From positions 10,959 to 74,958 of IMG/VR virus record IMGVR_UViG_3300031760_000035: a stretch of DNA of 64,000 nucleotides. The stretch is one strand, 5' to 3'. Below are positions 6,737-44,534 of this stretch, piece by piece. Within the stretch, counting starts at the first letter, position 1. Every line of letters starts with the position of its first letter. Made by a program: the position numbers and the translations under genes. The notes beneath the pieces are model-generated. The model was not told the DNA's origin, did no database searches, and saw only the letters and a list, made by a program, of their open reading frames with translations. The DNA comes from a virus. Lineage: Duplodnaviria; Caudoviricetes.

Positions 6737-9661
6737 TTACTCGTCAACATCGCCAGTAAGGCGCAGTTTCGATGCAAAGCGCTCGATGGCGTCGGTCACC
6801 TCATGGTCATCGACCTCGTTGGCACAGCCGACAAACTCAGAGGCAAACTCCCGCAGCACGTCCTCAACGGTCGGCTCGTGGTAATGACGAAAGAAGCCAT
6901 CGAGCGCGGTCGGTGCCTGCTCCCCTTCGAGTTGCACTCCCCAATGAAGCTCTCCGCCCCATTTCTTCGGATACTTCGAAAGCATCAGCGCAATCACATG
7001 GCCACGCGCCTTGCCGCGCTCCATCATGTCTCCCACGTGGATAATCTCGCCGTCAGCGTCCACGGGAAGGAGCACGCTGGCGTCGGCGAGATTGTTCAGC
7101 TCCCGTATGGCCTTCTGGTATTCCGCGTCTATGCGGTCGGCGATGGCTGTCACGACATCGTGTGTATCTCCACAGAAGCCGTATCCCCACTTCCTCAGCT
7201 CGTCAGTGATGCTCATTCGGCATCACCCGCCAGACGGAGCTTGGCGGCGTACTTCTCCACGACACCCTTTCGGATGGTCAGCGCGTCATCCTTGCAGACG
7301 GCCAGTGCGAACTCCCGCAGCACGTCCTCGACGGTCGGCTTGCGGTAATGACAGCACATGTCGGCAAAGCGCGGGCCGTCCTCGACCATGACCACGGATG
7401 GTGGCATGAGAGCCACGACCTCCTTTGGCTTGGTGTTGTCCTTGTAGGCAATCACGTCACCAATGCGAATAGGCACGTTGTTAGCATCCACTGGCAACTT
7501 GACGTAGTTGGCGTCTCGCTCGGCCACCCACTCGTCATGCTCGCGCCACATGTCGTACATAGCGCTCTCGTGCTTCGCGTCTATGCGGTCGGCTATGCGC
7601 TCAAAGTCAGCGAGAATGCCGTCAACGTCCCCAGCGTCCAAGTCATTCATGAGACTCGGTGTCTCGCGCCAATCTTGCGCGTACTCCCTCAGCTCGTCAG
7701 TAATTCTCATTCGGCATCACCGCGCAATTGGAGCTTGGCGGCGAAGTCAGCAATGTTGCCGCTCTCCATCACGTCATCAATGTCGTAGAAACGGTGCGCA
7801 GAGTCCTCGTTCCAAGTGTTGTGGCAAAGTGTCACCACTCCACGCAGCACGTCCTCGACGGTCGGCTTGTGGTGGTGACGCAAGCGCTTACGCTTGCGTG
7901 GGCACTTGTGCTCGTCCATCGGTTCAAGCTCGCCGTTGCTCATAATGTAGCCAACAACCTCGAACGGCTCGCAAAAGCCGCCGCCAACCTTCTTCCCTTC
8001 CATCACGTCGCCGATGCGAACGGGCACACCGTCAGCATCCACGGGAATCTTGACGTAGGAGGTCATGTCTGGCAGTTCGACCGACTCCACGCCATTGCCG
8101 TAGGCTTCTGCGCAGGCGTTCTCACACTCCGCATCTATGCGGTCGGCGATGGCTCGGAGGTTTGCCTGTTGCTTGTCGGTCGGTACCCAGCCTGTATACG
8201 GGTCAGCCGCGAACAGGCGCAGCTCGTCAGTGATGCTCATTTGGCATCACCTCGCAATTGGAGCTTGGCTGCTTGCTCGTGCAACCATTCCTCGACCTCT
8301 GGCGTGCGCTCTTCCACGGCCCCGAAATGCTTCAAGCTCTCGTACAGCACGTCCTCAACGGTCGGCTTGTGACGAACACGCTTGTTGCGCGCAGTTGTCC
8401 ACTCTGCCTGCTCGCCATCTCCATCAGGGTCAACATAAAACAGCGTGTCATTTGTGCCGATACCGATTACGTCAATCGCGTCCCCGCTGTCGCACCACTC
8501 AACCACGTCGCCGACATGAACAGGCTCGCCATAGGAATCCTTTGGAAGCATCATCCAGCCAGCCCTCTCCAAGTCTGCGACAAGGGTGGCATTGCCATCC
8601 ATCAGCTCGGCGTGGCACTCGTGGTAGCCCTTGAGCCACATATCGCCGTTCTTGGCCTTGAGGTCATCGATCTCCTTCTGCATGTTGCATGCATTGTTGT
8701 ACCACTCTAGGCACTCGCGCTCCTGCTTTTCGTTGACGTGGCACGCAACCTCATAGTCACGCTCAAGGTCGTGGATGTGCTCAAGCGCCTGTTCGTAGAG
8801 GCTCTTCCAATGCTCGCGCGCACTGGTTGCTTGGTCGAAGTTGTTGCGCTGTGTCTTGCACTCGGAAGTGAGGCGCTTTACCTCGCGTTCAAGCATGTTG
8901 ATGCGTTCGGACTCGGCGGGATACATGGTGCGCTGGCGCAGCTCTTCGTTCTCGCGCTCTAGACTTGCATGGATTGCGTCGATGGCGTCGCACTTCATCA
9001 GGAAGCCCTCGTACCCAATGGTGCCGATGCGGCTTACAACCATCTGTCCGTCAGTCTCGGAGGGCTTGTACGCCTCCATGTAGCTGCGAAGGTCGCCGGT
9101 GACGGGCTTTAGTCCCTCAGCCATTGAATCGACACTGTTATCAGCAGTATGTCCAACGGGAGCAGCATCAGGGCCACCATCACGAGCTGGCACACATCCT
9201 GTGGAGTCCATTGCATCCTGCTCCTCCTTCCACATCCCGTACAGGTCGCTGAGGCTTGCTGGTGTCTGGTCACCGCCAAGCAGGTGAATCAGCTTGTCAC
9301 GCACCTCGCCAAATGAAAGATCGCTGCTGTCGATGCCCAACGCGGCAGACAGGTCGCTGTACCACTTGGCAAACGGACTGCCTGAATACTCGGGGTAGCT
9401 GACTGACATCTTCCTCAGCTCGCACAACGCCTTGTGGCGCTCGTTGCCAAGCACGTCGTATGCCACATGGGTGCTCTGCTCCCGCTTCCAGCCAAGCGCT
9501 ATCTTGTATGCGTCAACCTCCACGTTATGAGCGTCTTTGATACGCTCGCAGCACTCATGGATTCGGTCATCGATGCGTGCGCAGCAGTCGTGCCCGTACT
9601 GCACGAGGGCCTCCACCTCATCGTCAAAGCTGCCGATAGCGCATTCGTAGAAATCGCCCAA
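6737..9661 (-). CDS. Four tandem paralogous genes (6737-7216, 7213-7710, 7707-8240, 8237-9661)
   Basis: Shared blocks MSITDELR..IADRID (first three), LPxDxxGxxIxxGD and PTVEDVL..AAKLxLxGD; 23-bp repeat CAGCACGTCCTCRACGGTCGGCT at 6854, 7318, 7845 and 8345. Confidence 0.8.
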
Positions 9662-11037: not shown

Positions 11038-11706
11038 CTACATGCCAGCTCTTCTGTCAACGTTTCCAAGCGCGACGCTCGCATACCGTTCGCGGAACCT
11101 GCTCACGATAGCCATGGCAGTCTCGTTGTCACCGCTCTTCGACATGCGCCGGGCCAATGCGTCGGGCGTGAACTGGGTGGTCACGATGGTCGGGCGCTTG
11201 TTGGCGTATCGGTCATCGACAATCGCGAACAGCCTGCTCAGCGCCCACTGCGACGGAACCTCCTTGCCGAGGTCATCGATAACCAGCAGCGCGCATGACG
11301 TGTACCTGCCGATGACCTGCGACTCGCCCTCGGTTCGGCTGGAATAGCTGTCGCTTATCTCAGACAGCAGGCGCACCGACGATATGAAGCGCGCCTTTCC
11401 CCTGCCGCATGACAGCCAAGCCTTCGTCACCCTTGCCGCGAGCCACGTCTTGCCAGCCCCCTGCACGCCGCTGATGTAGAGTCCACCGCCGCCATCGAGC
11501 GCGTCGAGCATGTCGTAGTCCGGCTCTGCCGCTATGAAAAGGCTCGGGATGCCGCACGCGACAGCCTCCTGGTCAAGTGCGACGCCCTCGATCCTCATGT
11601 CGGTCTGCTTGCTGACCATCTTCGTCAGCCAGTCTGGCGGCTTAGTGCCGCTCTCCACGTACAGGTCGTAGAGTTCATCAAGGCTAACGTAGGTCTTGAG
11701 TTCCAT
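11038..11706 (-). CDS. DnaC/IstB-like AAA+ helicase loader
   Basis: Walker A GVQGAGKT, Walker B LLVIDDLG, 'IVDDRYANKRPTIVTT'. Confidence 0.9.
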   Translation of the reverse strand: MELKTYVSLDELYDLYVESGTKPPDWLTKMVSKQTDMRIEGVALDQEAVACGIPSLFIAAEPDYDMLDALDGGGGLYISGVQGAGKTWLAARVTKAWLSCGRGKARFISSVRLLSEISDSYSSRTEGESQVIGRYTSCALLVIDDLGKEVPSQWALSRLFAIVDDRYANKRPTIVTTQFTPDALARRMSKSGDNETAMAIVSRFRERYASVALGNVDRRAGM

Positions 11707-12172
11707 CCTCTCCCTCCTTTGACGAGAGAAGCGCATCCACCCTCTGAATGCGCTCTCCGATCCAACGCATGACTGGCACGGCCATGGAATTGCCAGCACA
11801 CTTGTAGCGTGGGCTGTCACAATCGCTGCTGGCCCACTTCCTCACCTTTCGGCGCAGCCTCTCCCTCTCTTCGTCGCTGTAATTGAATGACGCCGCAACC
11901 CTTTCGGTCACGGCGTCAACGTCACAGTCTCGAAGGCTCGTCCATCCTGTCGGAAAGCCCTGCAACCTCTCGCACTCGTCTGGCGTCAACCGCCTTACCA
12001 CATACTCGAAGTTGTCGGCAGAGTCGGGGACGAACATCGTCTGGTCTTGTGTCGTACTAAGCGTGTAGCTCACATCCTTGTCCCACATTGCGCCCTCGCC
12101 CCCACCAACATTGGGTGTGCCGGTGTGACGCAGCTTCAACATGTAGACGGACTTCTCATCATCCGCATCCAT
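11684..12172 (-). CDS. C5-cytosine methyltransferase C-terminal polypeptide (motifs IX-X)
   Basis: RRLTPDECERLQGFP and RYKCAGNSMAVPVMRWIG; has its own SD (GGAGGTGA) overlapping the upstream stop. Confidence 0.85.
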   Translation of the reverse strand: MDADDEKSVYMLKLRHTGTPNVGGGEGAMWDKDVSYTLSTTQDQTMFVPDSADNFEYVVRRLTPDECERLQGFPTGWTSLRDCDVDAVTERVAASFNYSDEERERLRRKVRKWASSDCDSPRYKCAGNSMAVPVMRWIGERIQRVDALLSSKEGEDGTQDLR

Positions 12173-12342
12173 ATCGCGCTCACCTCCAAGAGTCGGGTTC
12201 GAGGATCAGTCCACCCGCTCGTATCGACTGGTTGTTTGTGAACTGCTTCTGCCCGTCTGTGGCATTGAGCGTTGGGTAGCAGTCATCCCCGTTGCTTGTG
12301 AGCGGCCCACGAGCACCATGGCATCCTTTGACATGTGTGCAG

Positions 12343-14274
12343 TCAGCGTGGGAACGACCCCCCCCCCGAGCCAATTTCCGCGTTGCCGTTCGTGCTTGCC
12401 ATCACGAGGGGTTCGTCATCGTGGCGACGGTATGCGACCGCCTCTGGGCCAGACGCATCGACTGTGTGCGCGACCTCATCGGATATGCCGCATCCGTTGG
12501 CGCTCGTGTTCGCGGTTCGTATGGCTATCGCTGGCGAGTGCCAGTCTGCGGTCAACGTGTTGCAGGTGCCATCGTCGTACGTCGGCATGCTTCTCGCCGC
12601 AGCGCTCGCGCTGTACTTAAATGCGGTTATACCCCCCCTCGCAACCCTCGTCAGCGCCGTCTCTAGCTGCGGCGGCAAGCTCCTCCCTCTTCTTCTTGCT
12701 CGACGCAGGATGCCCGAACACGCCCTCGCGCTCAAATAGAACCGCTGAGGAACCCCCCCCGATCCAAGACATCCGACAAGAAAGACACGTCTGCGCCGCT
12801 GGGGAACTCCGAAGAACTGGCTGTCAAGCACTCGCCATGCCAGACCATACCCGAGTTCATCCAGCTCCGCGAGCAGGGTTCCAAAGGCTCGCCCCCTGTC
12901 TTGCGAGAGCACGCCTGGAACGTTTTCCCAGAGGAGCCACCGGGGTTCAATTTCACGAACAGCTCGTACGTACTCAAGCATGAGCTGACCTCGCGGATCC
13001 ATGAGTCCTCCGCGCTTTCCTGAGATGGAGAACGCTTGGCAGTTATGAACGGCAATTCCATCTGCTGTATATGAGTTGTCATCTTCGACCTCCAAGTTGT
13101 AGACGGTTGCCGTTCCTGATGGAGTGAACGACTGAACAATTCTCTTGACGTACCCGTTGTCAATCTGACAGCGACCGCCACTCTTGCCCAAGGTGACTTT
13201 GTACGATGGCTTGACCCGATACTCGACTCCCTTGATTACGGATGTGCCGCGCTCTGTGGGCTTAGCCACTGAACCGACTCTCGAAAGGAGCTGGATGCCG
13301 ATGGTCAACGCCTTGGATACGCTTTCAGCTGATGTGACGCCGCTCTCATACTTGTGTCCATCGGTTGCCATGTAGCCGCGAACGATTGCCTGCCGCTCGG
13401 CGTCAGACAGTGCAAGCGCCCAAGCGGGGATGTTCTTATTGGCTGCACCACGACCAAAGTGCCGTTCCAGAAAGCGGCACAACTCGGTGTTGTGGATTAC
13501 GACTCGGCATCTCGTGTCATCTATGCGCTCGACTCGATAGTTCATCTTCTGCTTGAATCGAGCTACAAAACCAACGAGCTTGCTAGGACAGATGGACAGC
13601 TCAAGCGTTCTCAGTGTTGGGTTTCTTCTGCCCTTGCCGGCTATCAAACCATCCCCGAGATACCAGCCGATTAGCTCGGCAATCTCGACGTTATCCAAGT
13701 CGTACACCTTTGGGTACTCAGGCACCAGACAATCAATGTCTGGGACCATACAGGCACAGAGTCCTACAGCGTCTTCCGCTGAGACGAACTTCTCACTCTC
13801 GAATCTGAACCAGCTACCGTCTTCGTTGGCCTTTCCCCTCTGCGTGCGCTTCGAGGTGAGGATCGGATGACTCGGCGTGCACTCAATGGGCATTACTCCG
13901 CATATCTTCAAAACGCCAACATCGGTAACTCTCGCTCCCGTGTCGAGCACCTTGCGGAGCCTGCCCTTGTGAGTCACAACCCGGTCCCCGACGCGTACCT
14001 GCTCAATGGGCTTGAACCCATCCTCGCAAAGGACTAGGGTACCCGCTGTGAAGCACGGCGTACCGCCAACGACCAAATCTACTCTACCCTTGTACGGTTT
14101 CCAATCGACGTTCGCTATGTCCCCAAGGTTGGGAACGTCTGGGTATCTGTGCGCAAGGACGGCGCTTGGGTAAGGCTCGACCTCCGCAAACGCAAGGGGC
14201 TCGAATCCAAGAACGTCCCATGCGACGCTTGCCGCCTCGATGCCAGAGCACAGTGACACGTACCTTATCGGCAC
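12343..14274 (-). CDS. C5-cytosine methyltransferase (motifs I-VIII) with intein and three poly-G tracts
   Basis: SLCSGI (I), GGTP/CQ (IV), WENVPGV (VI), PQRRRRVF (VIII); G8 at 12753-12760, G7 at 12632-12638, G10 at 12358-12367. Confidence 0.92.
   Translation of the reverse strand: MPIRYVSLCSGIEAASVAWDVLGFEPLAFAEVEPYPSAVLAHRYPDVPNLGDIANVDWKPYKGRVDLVVGGTPCFTAGTLVLCEDGFKPIEQVRVGDRVVTHKGRLRKVLDTGARVTDVGVLKICGVMPIECTPSHPILTSKRTQRGKANEDGSWFRFESEKFVSAEDAVGLCACMVPDIDCLVPEYPKVYDLDNVEIAELIGWYLGDGLIAGKGRRNPTLRTLELSICPSKLVGFVARFKQKMNYRVERIDDTRCRVVIHNTELCRFLERHFGRGAANKNIPAWALALSDAERQAIVRGYMATDGHKYESGVTSAESVSKALTIGIQLLSRVGSVAKPTERGTSVIKGVEYRVKPSYKVTLGKSGGRCQIDNGYVKRIVQSFTPSGTATVYNLEVEDDNSYTADGIAVHNCQAFSISGKRGGLMDPRGQLMLEYVRAVREIEPRWLLWENVPGVLSQDRGRAFGTLLAELDELGYGLAWRVLDSQFFGVPQRRRRVFLVGCLGSGGVPQRFYLSARACSGILRRARRRGRSLPPQLETALTRVARGGITAFKYSASAAARSMPTYDDGTCNTLTADWHSPAIAIRTANTSANGCGISDEVAHTVDASGPEAVAYRRHDDEPLVMASTNGNAEIGSGGGSFPR
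12732..13082 (-). CDS. Overlapping alternative-frame polypeptide (M.EcoHK31I beta-like), truncated at the G8 tract
   Basis: SD GGAGGT (13088-13093), ATG at 13082; reads SSGKTFQACS..WMNSGM..SEFPSGADVSFLSDVL and would continue VPQRFYLSARACSGILRRA if the tract were G9. Confidence 0.65.
   Translation of the reverse strand: MTTHIQQMELPFITAKRSPSQESAEDSWIREVSSCLSTYELFVKLNPGGSSGKTFQACSRKTGGEPLEPCSRSWMNSGMVWHGECLTASSSEFPSGADVSFLSDVLDRGGFLSGSI
13042..14055 (-). mobile_element. 338-aa intein with LAGLIDADG homing endonuclease
   Basis: Starts CFTAGTLV, ends YNLEVEDDNSYTADGIAVHN followed by Cys; LAGLIDADG-like IGWYLGDG and RGYMATDG. Confidence 0.95.
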
Positions 14275-15627
14275 CTACTCACCTCCCATGATGTCGAACA
14301 GCGTGAGCTGGGCATCACTGTCGCCGCCCTTCTCCGCGCTGTCGTTTGGCTTGTCCTCGTCATGCGGTAGCCTGCTCCGCATACGGCTGTCTGCTATCTC
14401 GCAGTAGTGGGAATCCATGTCTATGCCCACGAAGCGCATGCCCTCGTCCATGCAGGCAACGCCAGTGGAGCCACTTCCCATGAACGGGTCCATGACCACC
14501 CCCCCCTGCCTGCAAACGAGCTTCACGAGGTAGCGCATGAGCGCGTTGGGCTTGACGCACGGATGGTCGTTCTTCACGTCGCCGCAGTTGCGGTCCTTCT
14601 TGGACGCCTTCGCGCAGTAGAAGAAGCGCGCCGCACTGCCAGTGTCGCCATACCCAAGCTGATCTTGGTACTCATGGCCGTTGAACTTGCCATAGATGCC
14701 GTTCTTGCCAGGGGCCTTGACGCCGCCACCTCCACTTGACTTTCCAGTTGACGGGAACATGGCGACAACCTCGTCGCTACCGTCGTGGACGAGGTTTGCG
14801 GGGTAGCGTCCGAGCTGTTCGCTCTTCGCTATGTTCTCCTTCTTGCGCTCGACAAACGCGGCTTGCATGTCCGGATCGTCCATGAACGGACGCCGCCAAC
14901 CGTCCTGTGCGGACCCAGCCTTCATGCCGCCACCAAGGCTGTCGCTAGTGGGTATGCGGCATGCGTCGATGTTGATTGCGCCGGTGCCATACTTGCGCAC
15001 GTTGTTGACAACCGTGCCGCTCAGCGGCTTGTACGCCAGGATGATGGGTTCCCATGCGGGCTTTAGGTGCGTGTTCCACCCCTCCCACTCCCAAGCATCG
15101 TCTGGAAAGCCTTTCTCCATCATGCGTCGTACGTTCTGGCCGTGCGGCATACCGGAGCCGTAGACCCACATCATGCAGTCCTTGACAATCCAGCCTGCGT
15201 CCTCGATGGCGCACGCGATGCGGTGAAACGTCCTCGTCCCGCCAAAGCAGAGCATGTGGGCACCAGGCTTTGCGACGCGAATGGCCTCCTCGAAGATTGG
15301 GGTCATCTCCTCCTGGAATCGTCGCATCTCACCGACTGTCGGCGTCTTTCCATGGCTGTTGCCGAACTTCGGGACAGCGGCGTTGCTGTTGTCGTAGGCA
15401 CGGCCCTTCTCCATGCGCTCCGCCACGGACTCTGTGCCGTTCGGCTTCCCGAAGGTATCCCAGCTAGCGCCGCCAAAACCAAGAGCATATGGTGGGTCTG
15501 TAACAATGGCGTCCACGGAATCGCTTTCCATGGACGCCATCTCGCTCAGGCAGTCGCCGTTATGTATCGTGTATCGTTCGCTAATCTCGCTCGCCCCCGT
15601 CTCTTCTGTTCCACGCCAGCACGACAT
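14275..15627 (-). CDS. Amino (N4-C/N6-A) DNA methyltransferase, beta-class order; start uncertain
   Basis: DPPY precedes DPFMGSGSTG; in-frame G8 tract at 14499-14506. Confidence 0.9.
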   Translation of the reverse strand: MSCWRGTEETGASEISERYTIHNGDCLSEMASMESDSVDAIVTDPPYALGFGGASWDTFGKPNGTESVAERMEKGRAYDNSNAAVPKFGNSHGKTPTVGEMRRFQEEMTPIFEEAIRVAKPGAHMLCFGGTRTFHRIACAIEDAGWIVKDCMMWVYGSGMPHGQNVRRMMEKGFPDDAWEWEGWNTHLKPAWEPIILAYKPLSGTVVNNVRKYGTGAINIDACRIPTSDSLGGGMKAGSAQDGWRRPFMDDPDMQAAFVERKKENIAKSEQLGRYPANLVHDGSDEVVAMFPSTGKSSGGGGVKAPGKNGIYGKFNGHEYQDQLGYGDTGSAARFFYCAKASKKDRNCGDVKNDHPCVKPNALMRYLVKLVCRQGGVVMDPFMGSGSTGVACMDEGMRFVGIDMDSHYCEIADSRMRSRLPHDEDKPNDSAEKGGDSDAQLTLFDIMGGE

Positions 15628-15790
15628 GGTTCACTGCGGCCGGCAGCGTGCTTCTGTAGCACGACATGTCAGCCGGGCACCCATCGCCTGTGCAATAGAT
15701 CTGCGCGTAGTACTCGGCACCATCCCAACCGCATTCGAGCTTCGCGCTACTCCCACAGAAGGGGCAGTGCATCGGATCGTCCGCAGTCAT
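15581..15790 (-). CDS. Lar-like restriction-alleviation family Zn-finger protein
   Basis: CPFCG...CxxxxC...AWNRR. Confidence 0.7.
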   Translation of the reverse strand: MTADDPMHCPFCGSSAKLECGWDGAEYYAQIYCTGDGCPADMSCYRSTLPAAVNHVVLAWNRRDGGERD

Positions 15791-16464
15791 TGGAGGGCCT
15801 ATCGTTCTCGTCATCGTCACGCACTCCAACATCTTCAAATTGCGCCTGTTCAGGCTCGTAGTCCTTTACCCACTGCGTCGCCATCGCCTTGGCAATGCCG
15901 TGGAATGTCTTGCTGCGCAGCTTCGCCCTGTCATGTGGTGAAAGGCTCCATGCCTCGGCGTACCACGTCGGCATGGTGTTGCCGCTGGCATAGACCATGC
16001 GCGGCTCTGGCTCCACCACGTTCGTCGGTTGCAGCGGTGGCAACCCCTTTAGCCACAGGCAGGTCTTCTTCTCGTATGGGTCGCCGAACATCCAGGGCTG
16101 TATGATCTGGTCTGGCTTCCTGTACAGCCTGCTCATGATGCCGACAGGATTCTCGATTGCCACGCGTGGCACGTGGTCAAGGCACGTGAACGCCTTGAAG
16201 AATCCGATGCCCATGTCCTGCTGGCCGTTGCGGCGCTTTCGCTCGAACCACGCCGCACCGCTCACCGCCAGATGGGTGCATGGCGGAAACGCGATCACCA
16301 TGTCCCAGTCCATCTTCACGACCTCAAGCGCGTCTGCCTGTATGTGCCACTCAGGGTGCATGCCAGACGTGGGGAGAAGATCGCAAGAGAATGCAGTGTG
16401 CCCCCCCCCGACGCAATTCCGCAGTCACAGCCTGCGACTCCTCACATGCGCAAAGCACTCGCAT
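15747..16464 (-). CDS. C5-methyltransferase-like protein, frameshifted at a G9 tract
   Basis: MRVLCACEESQAV..R[G9]HTAFSCDL..FPPCTHL..AIENPVG; 718 nt, in frame only if the tract at 16401-16409 is G8. Confidence 0.8.
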
Positions 16465-16621
16465 CAAATCACCGTCCTTCGCTAATAGAAATGGCCCCAA
16501 TGGGCCACTTGATTTGCTTCTGCTCTTACCTGTCCTCGTTCATCGCGCCGCATCTGGGGCAGTAGTTCGGTGGCCCATTGAAGCCGCCCATCCTGTAAAA
16601 CCAGTCCCACACACAGCCGCA

Positions 16622-16740
16622 TTGACACTCCCCACGGCTAAATCATGGGGGATTCCTGCTTCGTCGAGAATGTACTCTCGTACAGGTCCAAAGTCCTCTC
16701 CACAGGCGTTGATTCCCGTGTGCCCCACGGTATGGCATAG
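16622..16740 (-). ncRNA. TnpB omega-RNA scaffold / IS200-IS605 right end
   Basis: ACCGTGGGGCACACGGGAATCAACGCCTGTGGAGA...GAAGCAGGAATCCCCC...GTGGGAGTGTCAA directly after the tnpB stop. Confidence 0.85.
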
Positions 16741-17880
16741 CTACATGGCGAGAAGTCTCTTGCCTTCTCTCGCTATATTCATAGCGGCATTGATGTCGCG
16801 GTCGTGGTGAGTTCCGCATTCTGGACATGTCCACTCGCGCATCGAGAGCGTGAGATCGTCGAAGACGCATCCGCAGTTTCCACAGGTCTTGCTGCTCGGG
16901 AACCATCGGTCGATCTTGACGAACGCCCTGCCGTACCAGTCGCACTTGTACTGAAGCTGTCGGAGTATCTCGGACATGCTCGCGTCACCGACCGCCTTTG
17001 CAAGGTGATGGTTCTTGACCATGCCCATCACGTTGAGGTCCTCGACGGCGATGGCTTGGCTCTCGCGCACCGCCTGCGTCGTCGCCTTGTGGATGGCGTC
17101 CCTGCGTTGATTGGTTACCTTCTCGTAGACAAGCGCGACCTTGCGCTTCTGCTTCTGCCAGTTGGCCGAGCCTTTCTTTCTACGGGAAAGCCTGCGCTGC
17201 TCGCGTCGGAGCTTCTTCTCGGCCCTTCGCAGAAACTTGTGATTCGGGACCTTTACTCCGTCCGAGCGGATCATCAGGTCCTTAACTCCTGCGTCGATGC
17301 CAAGCATCTCGTTCTCGCCCATCGGCATGTTCGGCTCGGGGACGTCGGTACAACAGATGATGACGTAGTACTTCCCGGACGGGACTCGCTTCACGGTGGC
17401 ATTGAGGATGCGGCCCTCTACAGGCTGCGTGATCTTGCACTTCACAACGCCAAGTTTTGGCAGCTTGACATGCGACCCATCAATCACCGTAACCTTGCAT
17501 CCAGCGGCAGGGTTACGATAGCTTTGTGTGCCATCTCGTCTTGACTTGAACTTTGGGAAACCTGGCTTTTCGCCGTTCTTCACGCGGCGGAAGAAGTTCT
17601 GATATGCCTTGTCAAGGTCTCTGATTGACTGCTGCAACGCCGAGTTGCTGACCTCGTACAACCATGGCGCGACCGTCTTCTTCCACACGGTAAGCTGTTT
17701 GCACAGATCGAACTGCGAGAGATTCTTCTTCTCGCACTCCCATGCGGCCTTCTTTGTCTCCAGTGACAGGTTGTAGACCCACCGACAAGCGCCGAAGGTC
17801 TTTTCGATTAATGCCACCTGCTCCTTGTTCGGATACAGGCGGCATCGATATGCTCTTTGTATCAATGTAAAAAACCTCAT
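16741..17880 (-). mobile_element. tnpB: RNA-guided endonuclease TnpB, non-autonomous (no tnpA)
   Basis: HTH AYRCRLYP; RuvC residues GIDAG, VEDL and DRDINAA all intact; Zn finger CGNC/CPEC. Confidence 0.95.
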
Positions 17881-17933
17881 AATATGGTGATGTGGCGGGT
17901 GAGGCATCCCGAGCGTGCGCGGAAGGCACACTT

Positions 17934-18092
17934 GTCTACCTGCGTACTTACGGGAACAGGCCGCAGTACTCATTCACTTTGCCTTGGCACACGCACTGGT
18001 TCCTGCTTCTGCGACACGTGACTAGAGCTTCCGAACGAAGCTCCCCCGCCAGAGGTGTCTCCACAGGCGTAACTTCCCACATGCCATGCGGT
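17934..18092 (-). ncRNA. Second omega-RNA-like scaffold upstream of tnpB
   Basis: ACCGCATGGCATGTGGGAAGTTACGCCTGTGGAGA...GAAGCAGGAA...GCAGGTAGAC parallels the downstream scaffold. Confidence 0.7.
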
Positions 18093-18139
18093 AGATCGTT
18101 GTTAAACTCGCTTGGTTTCAATAGCTACAACAAAAAACA

Positions 18140-18199
18140 GCAACGGTCTCGCGGGGTCTCCCAGTCATCACTGTTGATGCTCATCAAGCCTGTGTTGAT
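18140..18199 (-). pseudogene. 5' remnant of a Dam-like methyltransferase gene
   Basis: Translates INTGLMSINSDDWETPRDRC versus INAGMMSSDRGDWETPRDLFDRC at the start of 20638-21113. Confidence 0.7.
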
Positions 18200-18869
18200 C
18201 TACAATTCCCTCCCGCACATCGGGCAGTTCCTTATCGGAATGATGAGCACGACCTTGAAGCAGCCGTCTTGTGGGAGCCACACGGCAAGCGCGCTGTCAT
18301 ACAGCATCAGGACCTCGGCATCGTCACTGTAGACGATGGGCTTGTTGCGGTATTCCTCGTCAGTGCCGTTGTACTTGCAGTATGGGCAGCTCATAGCTCC
18401 CTCCCGCACATGGGGCAGAACTTGATCTCGAAGAACCTCTCGCACTCCCCCGTGGGATGCCCAATGTAATCCTCGTCAGTCTCGTAGAAGGAGCTGACTT
18501 CGATCTGCTTGCCCACTATCTCGGCATAGAGATACGTGTTGTCGGCGATAGGCTCGTGCCACCAGCCGTTCACGCCGTCCGTGCAGTACTTGCAGCTCAT
18601 GACAGCTTCCTCCCGCACATCGGGCACACCTTCGGATGGAACTGAGCGACTGCCGGGAGTGCGTACTTGCCAGCCATGTCATCGTCAATCAGGACCAGCA
18701 GCGACCACTCGCTGAACTCGAAGTCAAACCAGAGGTTGACGCGGCCCTGCGCGTGATGAACGAGGTCATCGTCCTTGGTGAACGCCCACTCGCCTACAAG
18801 GATTCCACCCTCAAGCTCGCCACCATTGCGGGCAACGGCAGCGTCTAGGTCACAGAACTCGCAGCTCAT
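18200..18869 (-). CDS. Three tandem small Zn-finger proteins (18200-18394, 18391-18600, 18597-18869)
   Basis: Each has MSCxxC...CPMCGR(E/K)L, joined by ATGA overlaps. Confidence 0.75.
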
Positions 18870-20677
18870 TCCTCGCCGCCACCAATCTCAAGCGCGTACC
18901 GACCAGTCAGGAACGGGCGCTCCTCGAACGCCACCGGGTCGTACTTCATCTCCGTTACAGGTGTCGCCTTTAGGACTGCCAGCCTTCCAGCGCAGGCTGT
19001 GCATAGGTCAACCACCATCTGCCGCATGTACTTACAGTCATTGAGGTCTGCGTTGCTGACCAGCACAGGCACCGTGTAACGAGTGAGTTCAACCTCGTCT
19101 GGCCTCACGTCAAGGGTCTTCCCACATACGTCACACGTGACGCGGATGAAATCCTTTCTTCCCATATCTACTCCCATAGCTTGATTGACAGCGTGCCGTC
19201 ATCGAGGTCGATGCCATGCTCCTTGAGCTTCTTCAACTGTTCCTTCATCTGCTCGTGCTCATCGATGATGTCGGCCAGAGTCCAAACGTAACCGTCGTAG
19301 AAGCACTCGCGCTTGCCGTTCCGCGACAACCCCAGCTCGATGTTGCCGTCCTCGTCAAGCGAGAAGTCAACCGCCTCGATGCAGCCAGTCTTGTCCCAGT
19401 TGCCGAGCCACGTTCGGTGATGCTCGTAGACGTGGGCGTAGACACCCCACCGCGTGTCATCGTCGTAGACCTCGTGCTCGTCCATTAGGTGCGTGTCCCA
19501 GTAGAGCTTCGTCGCCAGTCCGCTGCGGTTGCCCCACACGTCAATGCACATCTGGTAGAACGGGGACTCCTTGAACTCTTGGAACGTGTACTCCTTCGAC
19601 CAGTCGGTGAGTCTCTTGGGGTTGTAGCAGCCGTCGCGTAGGTTGGTGACCTGCGTACGCTGCACGCAGACGGTAACCAGGTCGTAGTAGCTGCTTGGAA
19701 TGACGCGGAGCTGCATGTCGATGATGTCGCCTTCGTGGTACTCTCGGCTGCTGAACACCCTTGGCCCCAAGCGCTCATACTCTATGATTCCATCGACCTT
19801 GCTTGCCGTGTCGTACATGAGCCGCAGGTCGCGGATGTTCTTGGGATCCGGCTTGGGTGTTTCCCTCCTGCCGTTCGGAACCATGACTACCACCTCCACC
19901 AAAGAGCTTCTATGGGCCACTCGTTCGTGACGGCATCCCAGTTGTCCTTGCCGTCAAGCTCGTAAAGCCAACTCCTGATGCACTTGAGGGCACCATCCAA
20001 CGTCCCCCAACCGTTCTCAGGCTCGTACTGCCTGTACATCTCAGGATTTCGTTGCAGCTCCCACAGTCCGCGCCACAGCTTTGGCACGACCTCCTCCATC
20101 GGGTAGTAGGCTGGATGCCAATTGCCATCTGCGTCCTGCTCGCTCTGGCTGTAGTCCCAACCCATGCAGGCACGGAACATCTTGCGGTAGTTGTAGGTGG
20201 GCGAGTCGTATTCTGGGACGTGAACCACGCAGAAGTGCTCTCCGTCATTGTCCGGCATCACCGTCTCGACGCACCAGCGGATGTCGTAGCTCACTCGGCG
20301 TCACGCTCCTCCTTCAACTCGTCAAGCACCTCGCGCCACGCCTTCTTGCGACCACCGCGCATCGCCATGAGAAGCGCTGCCTCGTCAATGACATCCTGTG
20401 CGTGGCGCTCCATCCACTTGTCCATGTAGTCGTTGACGTACTTGTGCCAGTTGACCTTCGGCTTGCCATCCTTGCCGATGCCGTAGGGGCTGTATCCGTA
20501 GTCTGAGGGAAGGGCTTCGGCAATGCCCTGACGGACTACGCTGTCGATGACCTTGGCGACCTCTTGCGCGCCGATGTTGGCTATCTGCGCCTCGATTGGC
20601 GACGTGTCGTAGGTGAACGGAATCGTAACGTTGTGAATCATGTCTCCCTCGCCTTCTTTGGCAATGCGCCACCCCAT
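18866..20677 (-). CDS. Four hypothetical genes (18866-19177, 19168-19920, 19887-20294, 20291-20677; starts approximate)
   Basis: Contiguous ORFs with phage-like codon use. Confidence 0.55.
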
Positions 20678-21113
20678 CTGACAAGAGCAGACGGGAACGG
20701 CGCACTCTGTTGCTGGACTCCGTTGATGCAGAACCTGACGCGACCGCTGAGGAACTGGATCTCTGCGGCCATAGGCTCAACCCAGTTCGTCCACCATGAC
20801 GTGTCGGTTCTCGCCGGCAGAAGCCCAACGACTATGGTGTTCGGCTTCCGCGACTCTCTTGCGGCCTTCTCGACCCACGCCCCGATCTCACGTCCGTAGG
20901 GCGGATTCATGTAGCAATGATGCCCCCCCCCCACGACCTTTCCAGGGCGTTGTCCTCCTTGGTGAAATGCTGCTCGCACAGCGCGTTATCGTCGCTGCTC
21001 GCAACGTCCAGGTCGAAGTGCCATATGCTGTCGCAGCGGTCGAACAGGTCGCGTGGCGTCTCCCAGTCGCCCCTGTCGCTGCTCATCATGCCCGCGTTTA
21101 TTGGCATGTCCAC
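20638..21113 (-). CDS. Phage Dam-like N6-adenine methyltransferase, frameshifted at a G10 tract
   Basis: DWETP..FDLDVA..W[G10]HHCYMNPPYG..LLPARTDT; 476 nt, in frame only with G8 or G11 at 20923-20932. Confidence 0.88.
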
Positions 21114-41660: not shown

Positions 41661-44534
41661 TTATGATGCACTTGGCATGAGCCATGTGGTCGAGAACGTC
41701 AGCCACCTGCTTGTGGTCATCGCTACCTGCGTTCCTGAGCCGTTGCGATAGCGCGAGGCTGAGACGTTGCCGGACGGACTCACGCCTAGCAGCCAGATAT
41801 CCTGATTGCTGCCCTGACATAGGACATTGATGCTATCAAGCGGCCTGTACGCGGCTGGGATGGTACCAATGGTAAGCGATCCGCCTGCCTCCACCTCCGT
41901 ACTCGGCTTGACCGCACCGACGAGCTGGCACACGCAGCCCCAGCGGATGACGTGCGGGGTGTACGAGGAGCCATAAGCGAGGCAGTTGCTTCCGAGCGAC
42001 AGCGCCGCGCTGACTGGCTCATACTCGATGTAGTGCCAGCTGTCCCACTCGCCACTGTCAGGGTCGTAGTGCCGCCTGCGGAGCATGCCGCTGTGGAGCA
42101 GCGTCATCTGGGTGTGCGACGGGACGGATGAGGCTGCGTACCCGCCATTGGTCGCGGTGAGAGTGAGCCAGCCGCCTGACTGGCCGATGCGGGCCATGTA
42201 GTCCTTGCCATCCGTGCGCCCGTTATTATGGAAGTCTATGAGGTTCGCCACCTCTACGTTGTCATCAACGTAGACCTTACCGCCGACCGTGCACGAGCCA
42301 GCAGCGTTCACATTGCCGTCCCAGTCCACGGTGAAGGCGTTGCTGAAGTCCACTATCGACTCCCCGTTGCCGATGATAAAGGCATAGGTGCCGTTTTGGT
42401 CGGTAGCGTTGTGCCTACCTATCACCGTTTGGTTGTCCGACATTGCCTTCACCCACAGGCCGTGGGCGAAGGACTGCTTGCCCGCGGCCACCGCGCTGCT
42501 CCCTCCCGCATGGGAGTTCTCGCCCCTTGCCTCGGTGAAGTACCCCTCCGCGTGGGATGCCTTGCCAGATGCCTTGGAGTTCCATCCCTCCGCGTGGGAG
42601 TCCATGCCGGATGCCGCAGTCGAACTCCCCTCCGCGTGGGACGCGTTGCCAGATGCGTTGGCTAGTATCCCCTCCGCGTGGGAGTACGCGTTGGATGCCT
42701 TGGTCAAGCGTCCCTCTGCATGGCAGTCTGGGCCGGATGCCGCAGTCGAGTCCCCCTCGGCATGGCTACAGCCCCCAGATGCGGTGGTCCCCATACCCGT
42801 GGCGAACGACATGGCCCCGATGTTGCCCTTTCTGATTCCCATGGTGTATGCCTTCGCGTACTCAGACTCCGTGGTGTAGGTCACCGATAGGATGCTGCCC
42901 TTAGCTGGGGCCGTGGCCATGCGTATCATGGATTCCCCAACAAGCGAGTAGGTAGCGATTGTGTCGTCCACCGTGACCGAGGTGATTGAGTGCACCGCGA
43001 GTCTGAGGTAGAAGTCAGTGGTCGTGCCGTCGCCTTCGTACTGCTCGTTTAACGTCGCCTGCCCCTGCTCGTCGCGGAGGTCGCTCACGTGGAGGTAGGT
43101 CGTGCCCTCCTTGTCGGTGAGCTGCAAGCTGTGGTAGTCGATGATGGCATGGCTCTCCCCGTCCGCGCCAATCTGCATCGCTGGCCTGCTGACCTCGCGA
43201 AGGACGCTCGCGTACACCTCGACGTGGTAGGTGGTCCCGACCTCAAGGGCGTACTTGTACCAGTCCTCGTCGCTGTATTCGGACTCTTGGCTGCTGTCCT
43301 TGCACTGGTAGGCAAACGAGTATCGCGCGTCCGTGGGGAAGAGCGTCTGACCAGACGCGCCGAAATCGACCAGCCTTGCGTCGGTGACCTCAACGCCGTC
43401 GAGGTAGAGCTTGTAGCTGCTCACGTCAATCGGCTTGAGCTGCCTAAGCAGCTTCTCCATTGCGGACTGTTCGCGCTCGGTGCTGCCCATGGCTGGCACC
43501 GTCTTCGTCTCTGGGGAGTCGGTCATGTCGATTGCTGGCTCCCCGCCCTCATCGACTTCGGTTGGGGTCGCATTCGTCGTGAAGTCGCGCTCGTAGACCT
43601 TCACCTCGTCGCTGATGTAGTCGAGTCCGCTGACCCGCACGTAGTCCACGCCTCCGCCCGACTTGATGCGAAACGAGGTGTCATCCATCTGGGTGTGCGC
43701 GAAGCCGTCGAAGCCAATCTGCGAACCGCTCTCGCCGAAGCGCGCGTAGACGTTGCCCGAGTCATTGCCGTCACCGTCGAACATTGCGATGTCGCTGTTG
43801 TTCACGTTGTACGTCACGACAACCTCAGCGCCCCTAGCGGGTGCGGTGGAGAACGTGATGACGTTGCCTTCAAGGCTGTACGCCCGCGTTGGGCTGTTGC
43901 GGACGGTGACCGCCTTGACCCTCGTGGGGACGCTCGAAAGCTCGAACGTGACCGTAGAGCCGTTTCCGACGAACCTTTCGGTGACGGACTGCGCTGGAAG
44001 CAGGGCCAGAAGGTTGTTCGCGCCGCTCCTGAAAAGCTGCCCTATGGAGTTGATGAGCACGTTCGCACCAGTCTGCGCGCCAGCCCACTCCTCCTGAGTC
44101 ACCTCGGTTACGTGAATGCCTGAGTCATCCGTCCAGAAGTGTTGGCCCACGGCGGATGCGACCCTCTGAGCCGCAGCCGCTATGCCATTGGTAATCTCGG
44201 CACTGCGCACAGCGGCCTCGACTGCTCGGCTCAGCGGCAACACGATTGACGCGACGCCCCTGCTGCCAACGCTCGGGTCGCTGGCATTACCGACTACGGA
44301 CACCTGACCGCCGCCGATCTCGTAGCGCACCGCATCGCCCTCGGTCGCCTCTGCCAGCACCGAGCCGTCTACGGGCGTCTCGAAGTCGTTGCCCGGTAGC
44401 CGCACCCACGCGGTGCCGTCATCGTCGCGACGGACGAAGGTTGCGGTTCCTGACTGGGGCTGCTTCTCGACGGACTTTCCGCTGCGGAGCCTGTCGGCGA
44501 GACGCCATGCAACAGGCACGCTTATCTTCTCCAA
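41661..44534 (-). CDS. Tail fibre / receptor-binding protein
   Basis: 957 aa; about eight 14-aa SHAEG (YadA-head-like) repeats near 42460-42790; repeated YxGDG/FVGNG modules. Confidence 0.75.
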   Translation of the reverse strand: MEKISVPVAWRLADRLRSGKSVEKQPQSGTATFVRRDDDGTAWVRLPGNDFETPVDGSVLAEATEGDAVRYEIGGGQVSVVGNASDPSVGSRGVASIVLPLSRAVEAAVRSAEITNGIAAAAQRVASAVGQHFWTDDSGIHVTEVTQEEWAGAQTGANVLINSIGQLFRSGANNLLALLPAQSVTERFVGNGSTVTFELSSVPTRVKAVTVRNSPTRAYSLEGNVITFSTAPARGAEVVVTYNVNNSDIAMFDGDGNDSGNVYARFGESGSQIGFDGFAHTQMDDTSFRIKSGGGVDYVRVSGLDYISDEVKVYERDFTTNATPTEVDEGGEPAIDMTDSPETKTVPAMGSTEREQSAMEKLLRQLKPIDVSSYKLYLDGVEVTDARLVDFGASGQTLFPTDARYSFAYQCKDSSQESEYSDEDWYKYALEVGTTYHVEVYASVLREVSRPAMQIGADGESHAIIDYHSLQLTDKEGTTYLHVSDLRDEQGQATLNEQYEGDGTTTDFYLRLAVHSITSVTVDDTIATYSLVGESMIRMATAPAKGSILSVTYTTESEYAKAYTMGIRKGNIGAMSFATGMGTTASGGCSHAEGDSTAASGPDCHAEGRLTKASNAYSHAEGILANASGNASHAEGSSTAASGMDSHAEGWNSKASGKASHAEGYFTEARGENSHAGGSSAVAAGKQSFAHGLWVKAMSDNQTVIGRHNATDQNGTYAFIIGNGESIVDFSNAFTVDWDGNVNAAGSCTVGGKVYVDDNVEVANLIDFHNNGRTDGKDYMARIGQSGGWLTLTATNGGYAASSVPSHTQMTLLHSGMLRRRHYDPDSGEWDSWHYIEYEPVSAALSLGSNCLAYGSSYTPHVIRWGCVCQLVGAVKPSTEVEAGGSLTIGTIPAAYRPLDSINVLCQGSNQDIWLLGVSPSGNVSASRYRNGSGTQVAMTTSRWLTFSTTWLMPSAS

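Follow-up and report, generated by a model that had tools for sequence, protein, structure and literature searches.

Methylases are a main means by which phages escape restriction-modification, but methylated DNA is a target of type IV restriction. In bacterial phasevarions, slippage at a repeat inside the open reading frame (ORF) of a DNA methyltransferase (MTase), such as Type III mod or Type I hsd in Neisseria, Haemophilus, Helicobacter and Campylobacter, turns the enzyme ON or OFF. Contingency loci have also been described in phages, where the modification gene agt of T2 toggles between two type IV restriction systems (bioRxiv 10.1101/2025.10.21.683753). In that preprint, the poly-G receptor-binding genes of Fletchervirus are presented as contingency loci (Sorensen et al. 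2021), and a poly-G tract in a methylase of Bordetella phage BPP-1 is recorded but left unstudied (citing Liu et al. 2004). Here, we analyzed six G runs in four MTase genes of a phage genome. The window is a stretch of 64,000 nucleotides, bases 10959-74958 of the 74,958-bp single virus record IMGVR_UViG_3300031760_000035. We consider it likely that the six runs are slipped-strand contingency tracts, placed on Gly-Gly(-Gly) codons in four orphan MTase genes. The phage population probably switches its methylases on, off or between forms via replication slippage.

The locus shares several traits with bpm, the BPP-1 methylase gene. One of its enzymes belongs to the same beta-class family, with DPPY preceding DPFxGSG, and carries its run at the same place, GG|VV-DPF, before the S-adenosylmethionine (SAM)-binding motif. 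In bpm too, the in-frame length is G8, with G8, G9 and G10 found among near-identical phages. The two proteins are only distantly related, however, and BPP-1 has one methylase and one run, whereas here there are four methylases with six runs, of which a split C5 cytosine enzyme has three. As in T2 agt and Fletchervirus, homopolymer slippage would give reversible frameshifts in a phage gene, and agt, in which the repeat is an A run, is a DNA-modification gene: one restriction system favours its ON state and a different one its OFF state. Unlike agt, the present system would act by methylation and through G runs, in an apparently temperate phage whose record has a GC content of 59%, several loci could combine, and it is known from sequence alone. 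As in phasevarions, the repeat lies in an MTase ORF and slippage would turn it ON or OFF. Unlike phasevarions, these are orphan phage enzymes, no restriction endonuclease being recognizable near the methylase genes, and the likely benefit would be protection of the phage genome and not regulation of host genes, though a lysogen could be affected too.

The split enzyme has parallels of another kind. M.AquI is a two-subunit C5 enzyme, and M.SPRI and M.Phi3TI of Bacillus phages are multispecific C5 MTases. Likewise, the enzyme described here is divided between an ORF with motifs I-VIII and another with motifs IX-X, the latter preceded by a ribosome-binding site of its own, and several PTL-type modules lie in the variable region. 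We know of no G-run switching described for M.AquI, M.SPRI or M.Phi3TI. Collectively, repeat-switched bacterial methylases, phage contingency loci and the BPP-1 methylase poly-G are already known; what is new is that four methylases appear to be so controlled in one phage, that a run site is common to distant beta-class enzymes and that runs stand at a dual-coded junction. If this is true, the random switching of four methylases would provide a ready-made mix of epigenetic disguises, and the concept of contingency loci, which has only lately been demonstrated in T-even phages, would extend to methylation and to uncultured temperate phages.

All long G runs of the phage lie in methyltransferase genes

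The window, like the whole 74,958-bp record, contains six G/C homopolymers of at least 7 nucleotides, all of them C on the plus strand. Four MTase genes, which together make up 6.9% of the genome, contain all six:

12358..12367, minus strand: G10, the third C5 run, at the 3' end of the N-terminal ORF of the split C5 MTase; proposed tail selector
12632..12638, minus strand: G7, at the downstream edge of segment B of the split C5 MTase; leads the reading out of the B frame into that of the recognition region downstream
12753..12760, minus strand: G8, at the upstream edge of segment B, just past motif VIII (QRRRRVFLVGCLG)
14499..14506, minus strand: G8, in the N4/N6 MTase; encodes Q-G-G-V directly before DPFMGSG, in frame
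16401..16409, minus strand: G9, in the small C5-like MTase; codons 19-21 (RRGG), out of frame
20923..20932, minus strand: G10, in the Dam-like MTase; at W-G-G just before NPPY, out of frame

Since the genes of the methylase region are all on the minus strand, every run is G on the coding strand. G runs of the plus strand reach 5 at most. C runs of length 4, 5 and 6 number 145, 36 and 1, and those of length 7, 8, 9 and 10 number 1, 2, 1 and 2. Under an order-3 Markov model, about 0.5 runs of at least 8 were expected against 5 observed (maximum of 2 in 60 simulations). For runs of at least 7, the same model gave about 2.7, so the lone G7 is within chance. Given that the MTases cover 6.9% of the genome, the probability that all five runs of at least 8 would fall inside them is ~1.6e-6. 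Codon use points the same way: GGG is a minor Gly codon (14%), and Gly-Gly pairs are encoded by GGGGGG in 0 of 83 cases outside the MTases versus 4 of 21 inside. No other simple-sequence repeats were found in the window.

These are the traits of contingency loci. Slippage-prone homopolymers, six runs of G7 to G10, lie inside ORFs; they are in excess and clustered beyond what composition and codon use would give; and at the Dam-like, small C5-like and N4/N6 runs, a change in length toggles the frame between intact and truncated.

Three genes with a run upstream of an essential motif

Three of the four genes have a simple layout:

14275..15627, minus strand: beta-class N4/N6 DNA MTase, 450 amino acids (PF01555 at 4e-34)
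15747..16464, minus strand: small C5-like DNA MTase with PPC and ENP motifs (phrog_757)
20638..21107, minus strand: Dam-like N6-adenine MTase, split into two frames at its run (PF05869, phrog_111)

The N4/N6 enzyme has TDPPY at its N-terminal end and the SAM-binding motif DPFMGSG at its C-terminal end, the arrangement of the beta class. Judging from its frame, the gene is ON as sequenced. A search of JGI metagenomes gave a single close contig, L001 (L numbers denote related contigs or loci, and P numbers proteins). Over the N4/N6 gene, L001 is 98.7% identical, but its run is G10 against G8 in the window, and this G10 allele truncates the protein before DPFMGSG. In the protein cluster at 90% identity, two of the four members (one from an ENA contig and one from a JGI contig) are truncated right after RQGG and continue in a shifted frame. 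Across 80 homologues, 76 have G3 or less at this site; only the window, L001, L002 (57% amino acid identity) and L004 (43%) have long runs of G8 to G10, and no intermediate lengths were seen. Incidentally, L001 carries a free-standing HNH endonuclease gene (905-1603) between its small C5-like and N4/N6 genes.

In the small C5-like gene, the first 21 codons (16402-16464, MRVLCACEESQAVTAELRRGG) stand in a different frame from the remainder at G9. With G8, the gene would read RRGGHTAFSCD, in agreement with its homologues; it is predicted to be OFF at G9 and ON at G8 or G11. As to relatives, L132 has G11, and L137 and L139 have G6 with upstream frameshifts. The L001 contig starts ~15 nucleotides past this run.

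The two fragments of the Dam-like gene match PF05869 at positions 6-59 and 60-132 (~4e-13 each) and meet exactly at the run. The gene has MNPPYG and aligns end to end with relatives of 154 amino acids, as expected of a phage Dam enzyme of this family. From its two frames, it reads as OFF at G10, and G8 or G11 would restore it. Relatives at 87-88% identity have SWGGH in a single frame, and the contig L325 has G8 at the homologous site. Two further relatives, P0132 and P0143, start with MGGG at the run, which identifies them as shifted Dam fragments. Runs of G8 to G10 were also noticed ~750 nucleotides upstream of Dam-like genes in several IMG/VR contigs (L285 at 534; L288 at 743; L290 and L292 at 757), following a conserved GC-rich element, GCGGGGGCC, without a clear ORF. 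In L280, just downstream of the Dam-like gene, a G9 (2167-2175) adjoins RRRIWIVA, which is like motif VIII of C5 MTases, and makes a further methylase-associated run.

The first-pass annotation, made from the window by eye, had listed the six runs as the only G/C runs of at least 7 in the 64 kb and as G on the coding strand at every site. We recovered the same coordinates and strand, and the statement extends to the full record. It had also read the amino-MTase as in frame, and the gene does read through at G8. It had called the second C5-like gene off and in need of G8; a change of -1 or +2, that is G8 or G11, restores the frame. For the Dam gene, said to be off and to need G8 or G11, the frame requires -2 or +1 and the Pfam halves abut at the run, in full agreement.

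A split, intein-bearing C5 methyltransferase with three runs

The fourth gene had been described as rearranged. We find instead a split gene with three runs:

12343..14274, minus strand: C5 cytosine MTase N-terminal ORF, 643 amino acids (PF00145, Hint_2 and LAGLIDADG_3 in Pfam; TIGR00675 and intein_Cterm)
13042..14055, minus strand: Hint/LAGLIDADG intein, 338 amino acids (residues C74-N411), inserted at GGTP|CQ
11684..12172, minus strand: C5 MTase C-terminal ORF, 162 amino acids, motifs IX-X, with its own ATG
12180..12374, minus strand: frame-1 tail ORF, used if the third C5 run has the length G9 (the state of the ENA assembly)

Besides motifs I-VIII and segment B, the N-terminal ORF includes some of the recognition region; the C-terminal ORF has its own Shine-Dalgarno sequence, GGAGGTG (12181-12187). 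Across the two ORFs are found the PF00145 motifs I, IV (PCQ), VI (ENV), VIII (QRRR), IX and X, and the two products may act as a two-piece enzyme. The intein is so placed that its +1 extein residue is the motif IV catalytic Cys, and its removal restores PC|Q. L001 and L003 have an intein at the same position.

Frame analysis indicates that the three runs choose frame connections and C-terminal tails, which is not a simple ON/OFF switch. At the third run, G10 leads to a stop after 4 codons, G9 to a tail of 59 amino acids with CYPTLNATDG, and G8 or G11 to a tail of 50 amino acids that begins with VVPTLTAH and aligns with the in-frame L014. The alternative tails may be recognition-like modules, two of the three carrying PTL-type ones. 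This phage has also been assembled as an ENA contig of 74,942 bp, in which the C5 product, P0125, has 697 amino acids; 638 residues match exactly before the reading passes into frame 1, which corresponds to G9 instead of G10 at the third run. At the GG|VVPTL site of relatives, we read G7 in L013, G8 in L014, where it is in frame, G9 in L015 and L002, and G10 in L003. In L003, an HNH gene (~8860-9390) lies between the two C5 halves, right after the G10 that ends the first half. The same contig has a G8 (20256-20263) directly past a phage SAM synthetase ORF (19015-20253), where an unknown ORF begins.

A dual-coded junction between the G8 and G7 runs

The two upstream runs of the C5 gene frame a short segment that is overlapped by another ORF:

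12639..12752, minus strand: segment B, dual-coded, 38 codons, reading VPQRFYLSARACSGILRRARRRGRSLPPQLETAL as sequenced, in phase with the MTase
12732..13181, minus strand: overlapping +1-frame ORF over motifs IV-VIII, 149 amino acids as sequenced (matches phrog_16143)

The nucleotides that follow motif VIII encode AVLFERE..GHPA.. in one frame and, in the +1 frame, VPQRYFLS.KAC.GILRRA.KRGK.LP..L..AL, hereafter peptide B. We examined 13 other genes, from six IMG/VR contigs, phage P1 (dmt) and six more cultured phages (of Pseudanabaena, Caulobacter, Roseobacter, Vibrio and Enterobacter). Peptide B was in the +1 frame relative to motif VIII or to the annotated coding sequence in 13 of 13. The distance from motif VIII to GILRRA is 87 nucleotides in the window versus 88 or 91, that is the +1 frame, in every relative; only because of its G8 is peptide B in phase in the window. 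In a seventh cultured phage, Providencia PSTRCR_117lys, the match to B is also +1 of the coding sequence; it was outside the motif search and does not enter the statistics.

Over 36 codons, mean pairwise identity was 60% in the B frame versus 32% in the annotated frame, and the B frame was the higher in 77 of 78 pairs. Variation was concentrated at B-frame third positions (185 versus 122 and 99). This pattern suggests that constraint may be stronger on the +1-frame peptide B than on the annotated frame. Of the 13 genes, 12 are complete, and in these the +1 ORF stays open over 143-221 codons; it matches phrog_16143. In P1 it is unannotated (coordinates of the embedded peptide: L082, which is phage P1, 2501-2690; L063, 2961-3182; L326-L332, ~701-900). 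A profile of the ORF matched 5,251 cluster representatives at E ≤0.001, mostly of 150-250 amino acids, although such counts depend on gene callers and do not by themselves prove translation. NCBIfam has no family for peptide B. In some, P0315, P0356, P0277 and P0334, B is in frame with PF00145 motifs IX-X; some proteins thus have it at the head of the half with the recognition region and motifs IX-X. A search for full-length proteins with an in-frame B returned only the window's own protein; this was a word-indexed search with a short query against a very large database.

At the sequenced G8 and G7, B is fused into the enzyme and absent from the overlapping ORF, whose conserved B tail is lost at G8 and would be regained at G9. 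A combination of G9 and G6 would bring back the arrangement of the relatives, and G9 with G7 would end the first half and place B at the head of the downstream part. It is quite possible, if a little short of an even chance, that the G8 and G7 runs act on an undescribed and widely conserved overlapping coding element of P1-Dmt-type C5 methylases; slips would then shift B among the nested ORF, the downstream head and the enzyme, as a switch of architecture and not of expression. If the dual-coded junction of P1-type dmt genes is translated, one of the best-studied phages would turn out to have a hidden gene product.

Run lengths differ between close relatives

The record encodes a large terminase (TerL), a portal, a major head protein, a tape measure protein and an integrase, and this gene set points to an uncultured, siphovirus-like temperate phage, sampled in a metagenome. 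TerL is closest to those of Firmicutes phages, at ~45% identity. A scan of genome contigs for a host or prophage relative gave at best ≤41% identity and no prophage relative, and close relatives were found neither in the phage collection by DNA nor in IMG/VR by peptide patterns.

Near-identical genomes with differing lengths were available for two of the six runs, namely the N4/N6 run (G8 versus G10) and the third C5 run (G10 versus G9). Cultured phages provided an independent case. The bpm gene of BPP-1 contains the only G/C run of at least 7 in that genome, at the homologous site PGG|VVLDPF, and this run is G8 in BPP-1 and vB_BbrP_003, G9 in BIP-1 and G10 in BMP-1, the DNA being otherwise 99.7-99.9% identical. 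Collectively, the comparison of lengths among related phages, which the first-pass annotation had proposed, revealed differences at the N4/N6, third C5, Dam, small C5-like and bpm sites. At the four run sites where it is readable, in the window and its relatives, the in-frame length is G8. The run site in common with BPP-1 offers a cultured system for study.

A possibility was that these differences were assembly or sequencing artefacts, the tracts being real, each with a fixed in-frame length, and the frameshifts mere homopolymer miscalls. As a matter of fact, each record is a consensus derived from a metagenome. The JGI and ENA versions of this phage differ by one G, and L001 ends beside a run; error-prone homopolymers would also give both. 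However, L001 differs by two bases and not one, the sibling Bordetella phages with G8, G9 and G10 at the homologous site were cultured and separately deposited, and the remaining long ORFs of the genome are intact. Moreover, the avoidance of GGGGGG for Gly-Gly pairs elsewhere in the genome makes the runs look selected for mutability. We regard an artefact as unlikely.

A broader idea, that the long G/C runs of related phage contigs all lie inside methylases, was rejected, some being found in DnaN, replication protein O, PAPS reductase and unknown genes. The earlier expectation that similar tracts would be lacking from other genes is borne out within this phage, in which we found none elsewhere; across phages, such runs are not exclusive to methylases.

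A proposed switch between methylation states

In the slippage model that we favour, the gain or loss of one base at replication would shift the frame at each run. For the N4/N6, Dam-like and small C5-like genes, with the run upstream of an essential motif, the outcome would be a plain ON/OFF switch. For the split C5, G8 and G7 together would decide the place of B (enzyme, overlapping ORF or downstream head), and G10 would pick one of three tails. The population would hold genomes with differing sets of active methylases and differing C5 forms. The enzymes of the infecting genome would mark the progeny DNA, so that a burst would be uniformly marked and diversity would arise between bursts, one generation after a switch. 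The ON state would act as a shield from restriction-modification and the OFF state as an escape from methyl-dependent restriction; a lysogen in the OFF state would, moreover, be spared self-harm. It is plausible, by analogy with T2 agt, that mixed methylation genotypes hedge against both kinds of restriction.

The first-pass annotation had put forward slipped-strand switching of the MTases, and the core of that proposal is supported by the DNA and protein differences between assemblies and by G8, G9 and G10 in bpm. Its plain ON/OFF scheme was wrong for the intein-bearing C5 gene, and the mixed methylation that it expected within each burst is contradicted if, as we infer, the enzymes of the infecting genotype mark all progeny.

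Several points weigh against the slippage model. Of the six runs, only two could be compared directly within this lineage. Assemblies of short reads are prone to error at long G runs, and the G9 and G10 lengths in metagenome consensus sequences are uncertain; the JGI and ENA assemblies, with their different lengths at the third C5 run, may rest on the same reads. Related loci have G/C runs of at least 8 in DnaN, replication protein O and PAPS reductase genes as well. Last, the recognition region past the third C5 run needs extra frame changes away from the long runs, so part of the C5 gene could be decaying.

This last point bears on a wider possibility, namely that the methylases are dispensable cargo being lost and that the runs are the first sites of inactivating indels. 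Two of the four genes are indeed out of frame, the C5 recognition region has its frame breaks beyond the long runs, and the region is crowded: it has the intein and an IS605-type TnpB gene, and relatives have HNH genes there as well. Decay would nevertheless hardly leave what we observed: the coding sequence that flanks the runs is intact, the Pfam coordinates are contiguous over the Dam run, the run sites are kept in homologues at 43-57% identity and in BPP-1, and all four readable sites have G8 as their in-frame length. We find gene decay quite improbable. Expression-level recoding, in which slippage of RNA polymerase or of the ribosome on the G runs would give full-length enzymes and DNA length would matter little, could appeal to the two frames under selection at the B junction, but it is very improbable, as length differences were observed directly in DNA, relatives join the frames at the B junction without any run and known bacterial transcriptional slippage uses A/T runs.

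Neighbouring features

Between the methylase genes lies an IS605 OrfB/TnpB-type gene (16741-17973, minus strand) with HTH_OrfB_IS605, OrfB_IS605 and Cas12f1-like TNB domains. Outside the methylase region, we noticed a tandem repeat of 42/84 nucleotides in 2-4 copies (window 42500-42699), inside an ORF of 957 amino acids (41661-44534, minus strand) that probably encodes a tail-region protein.

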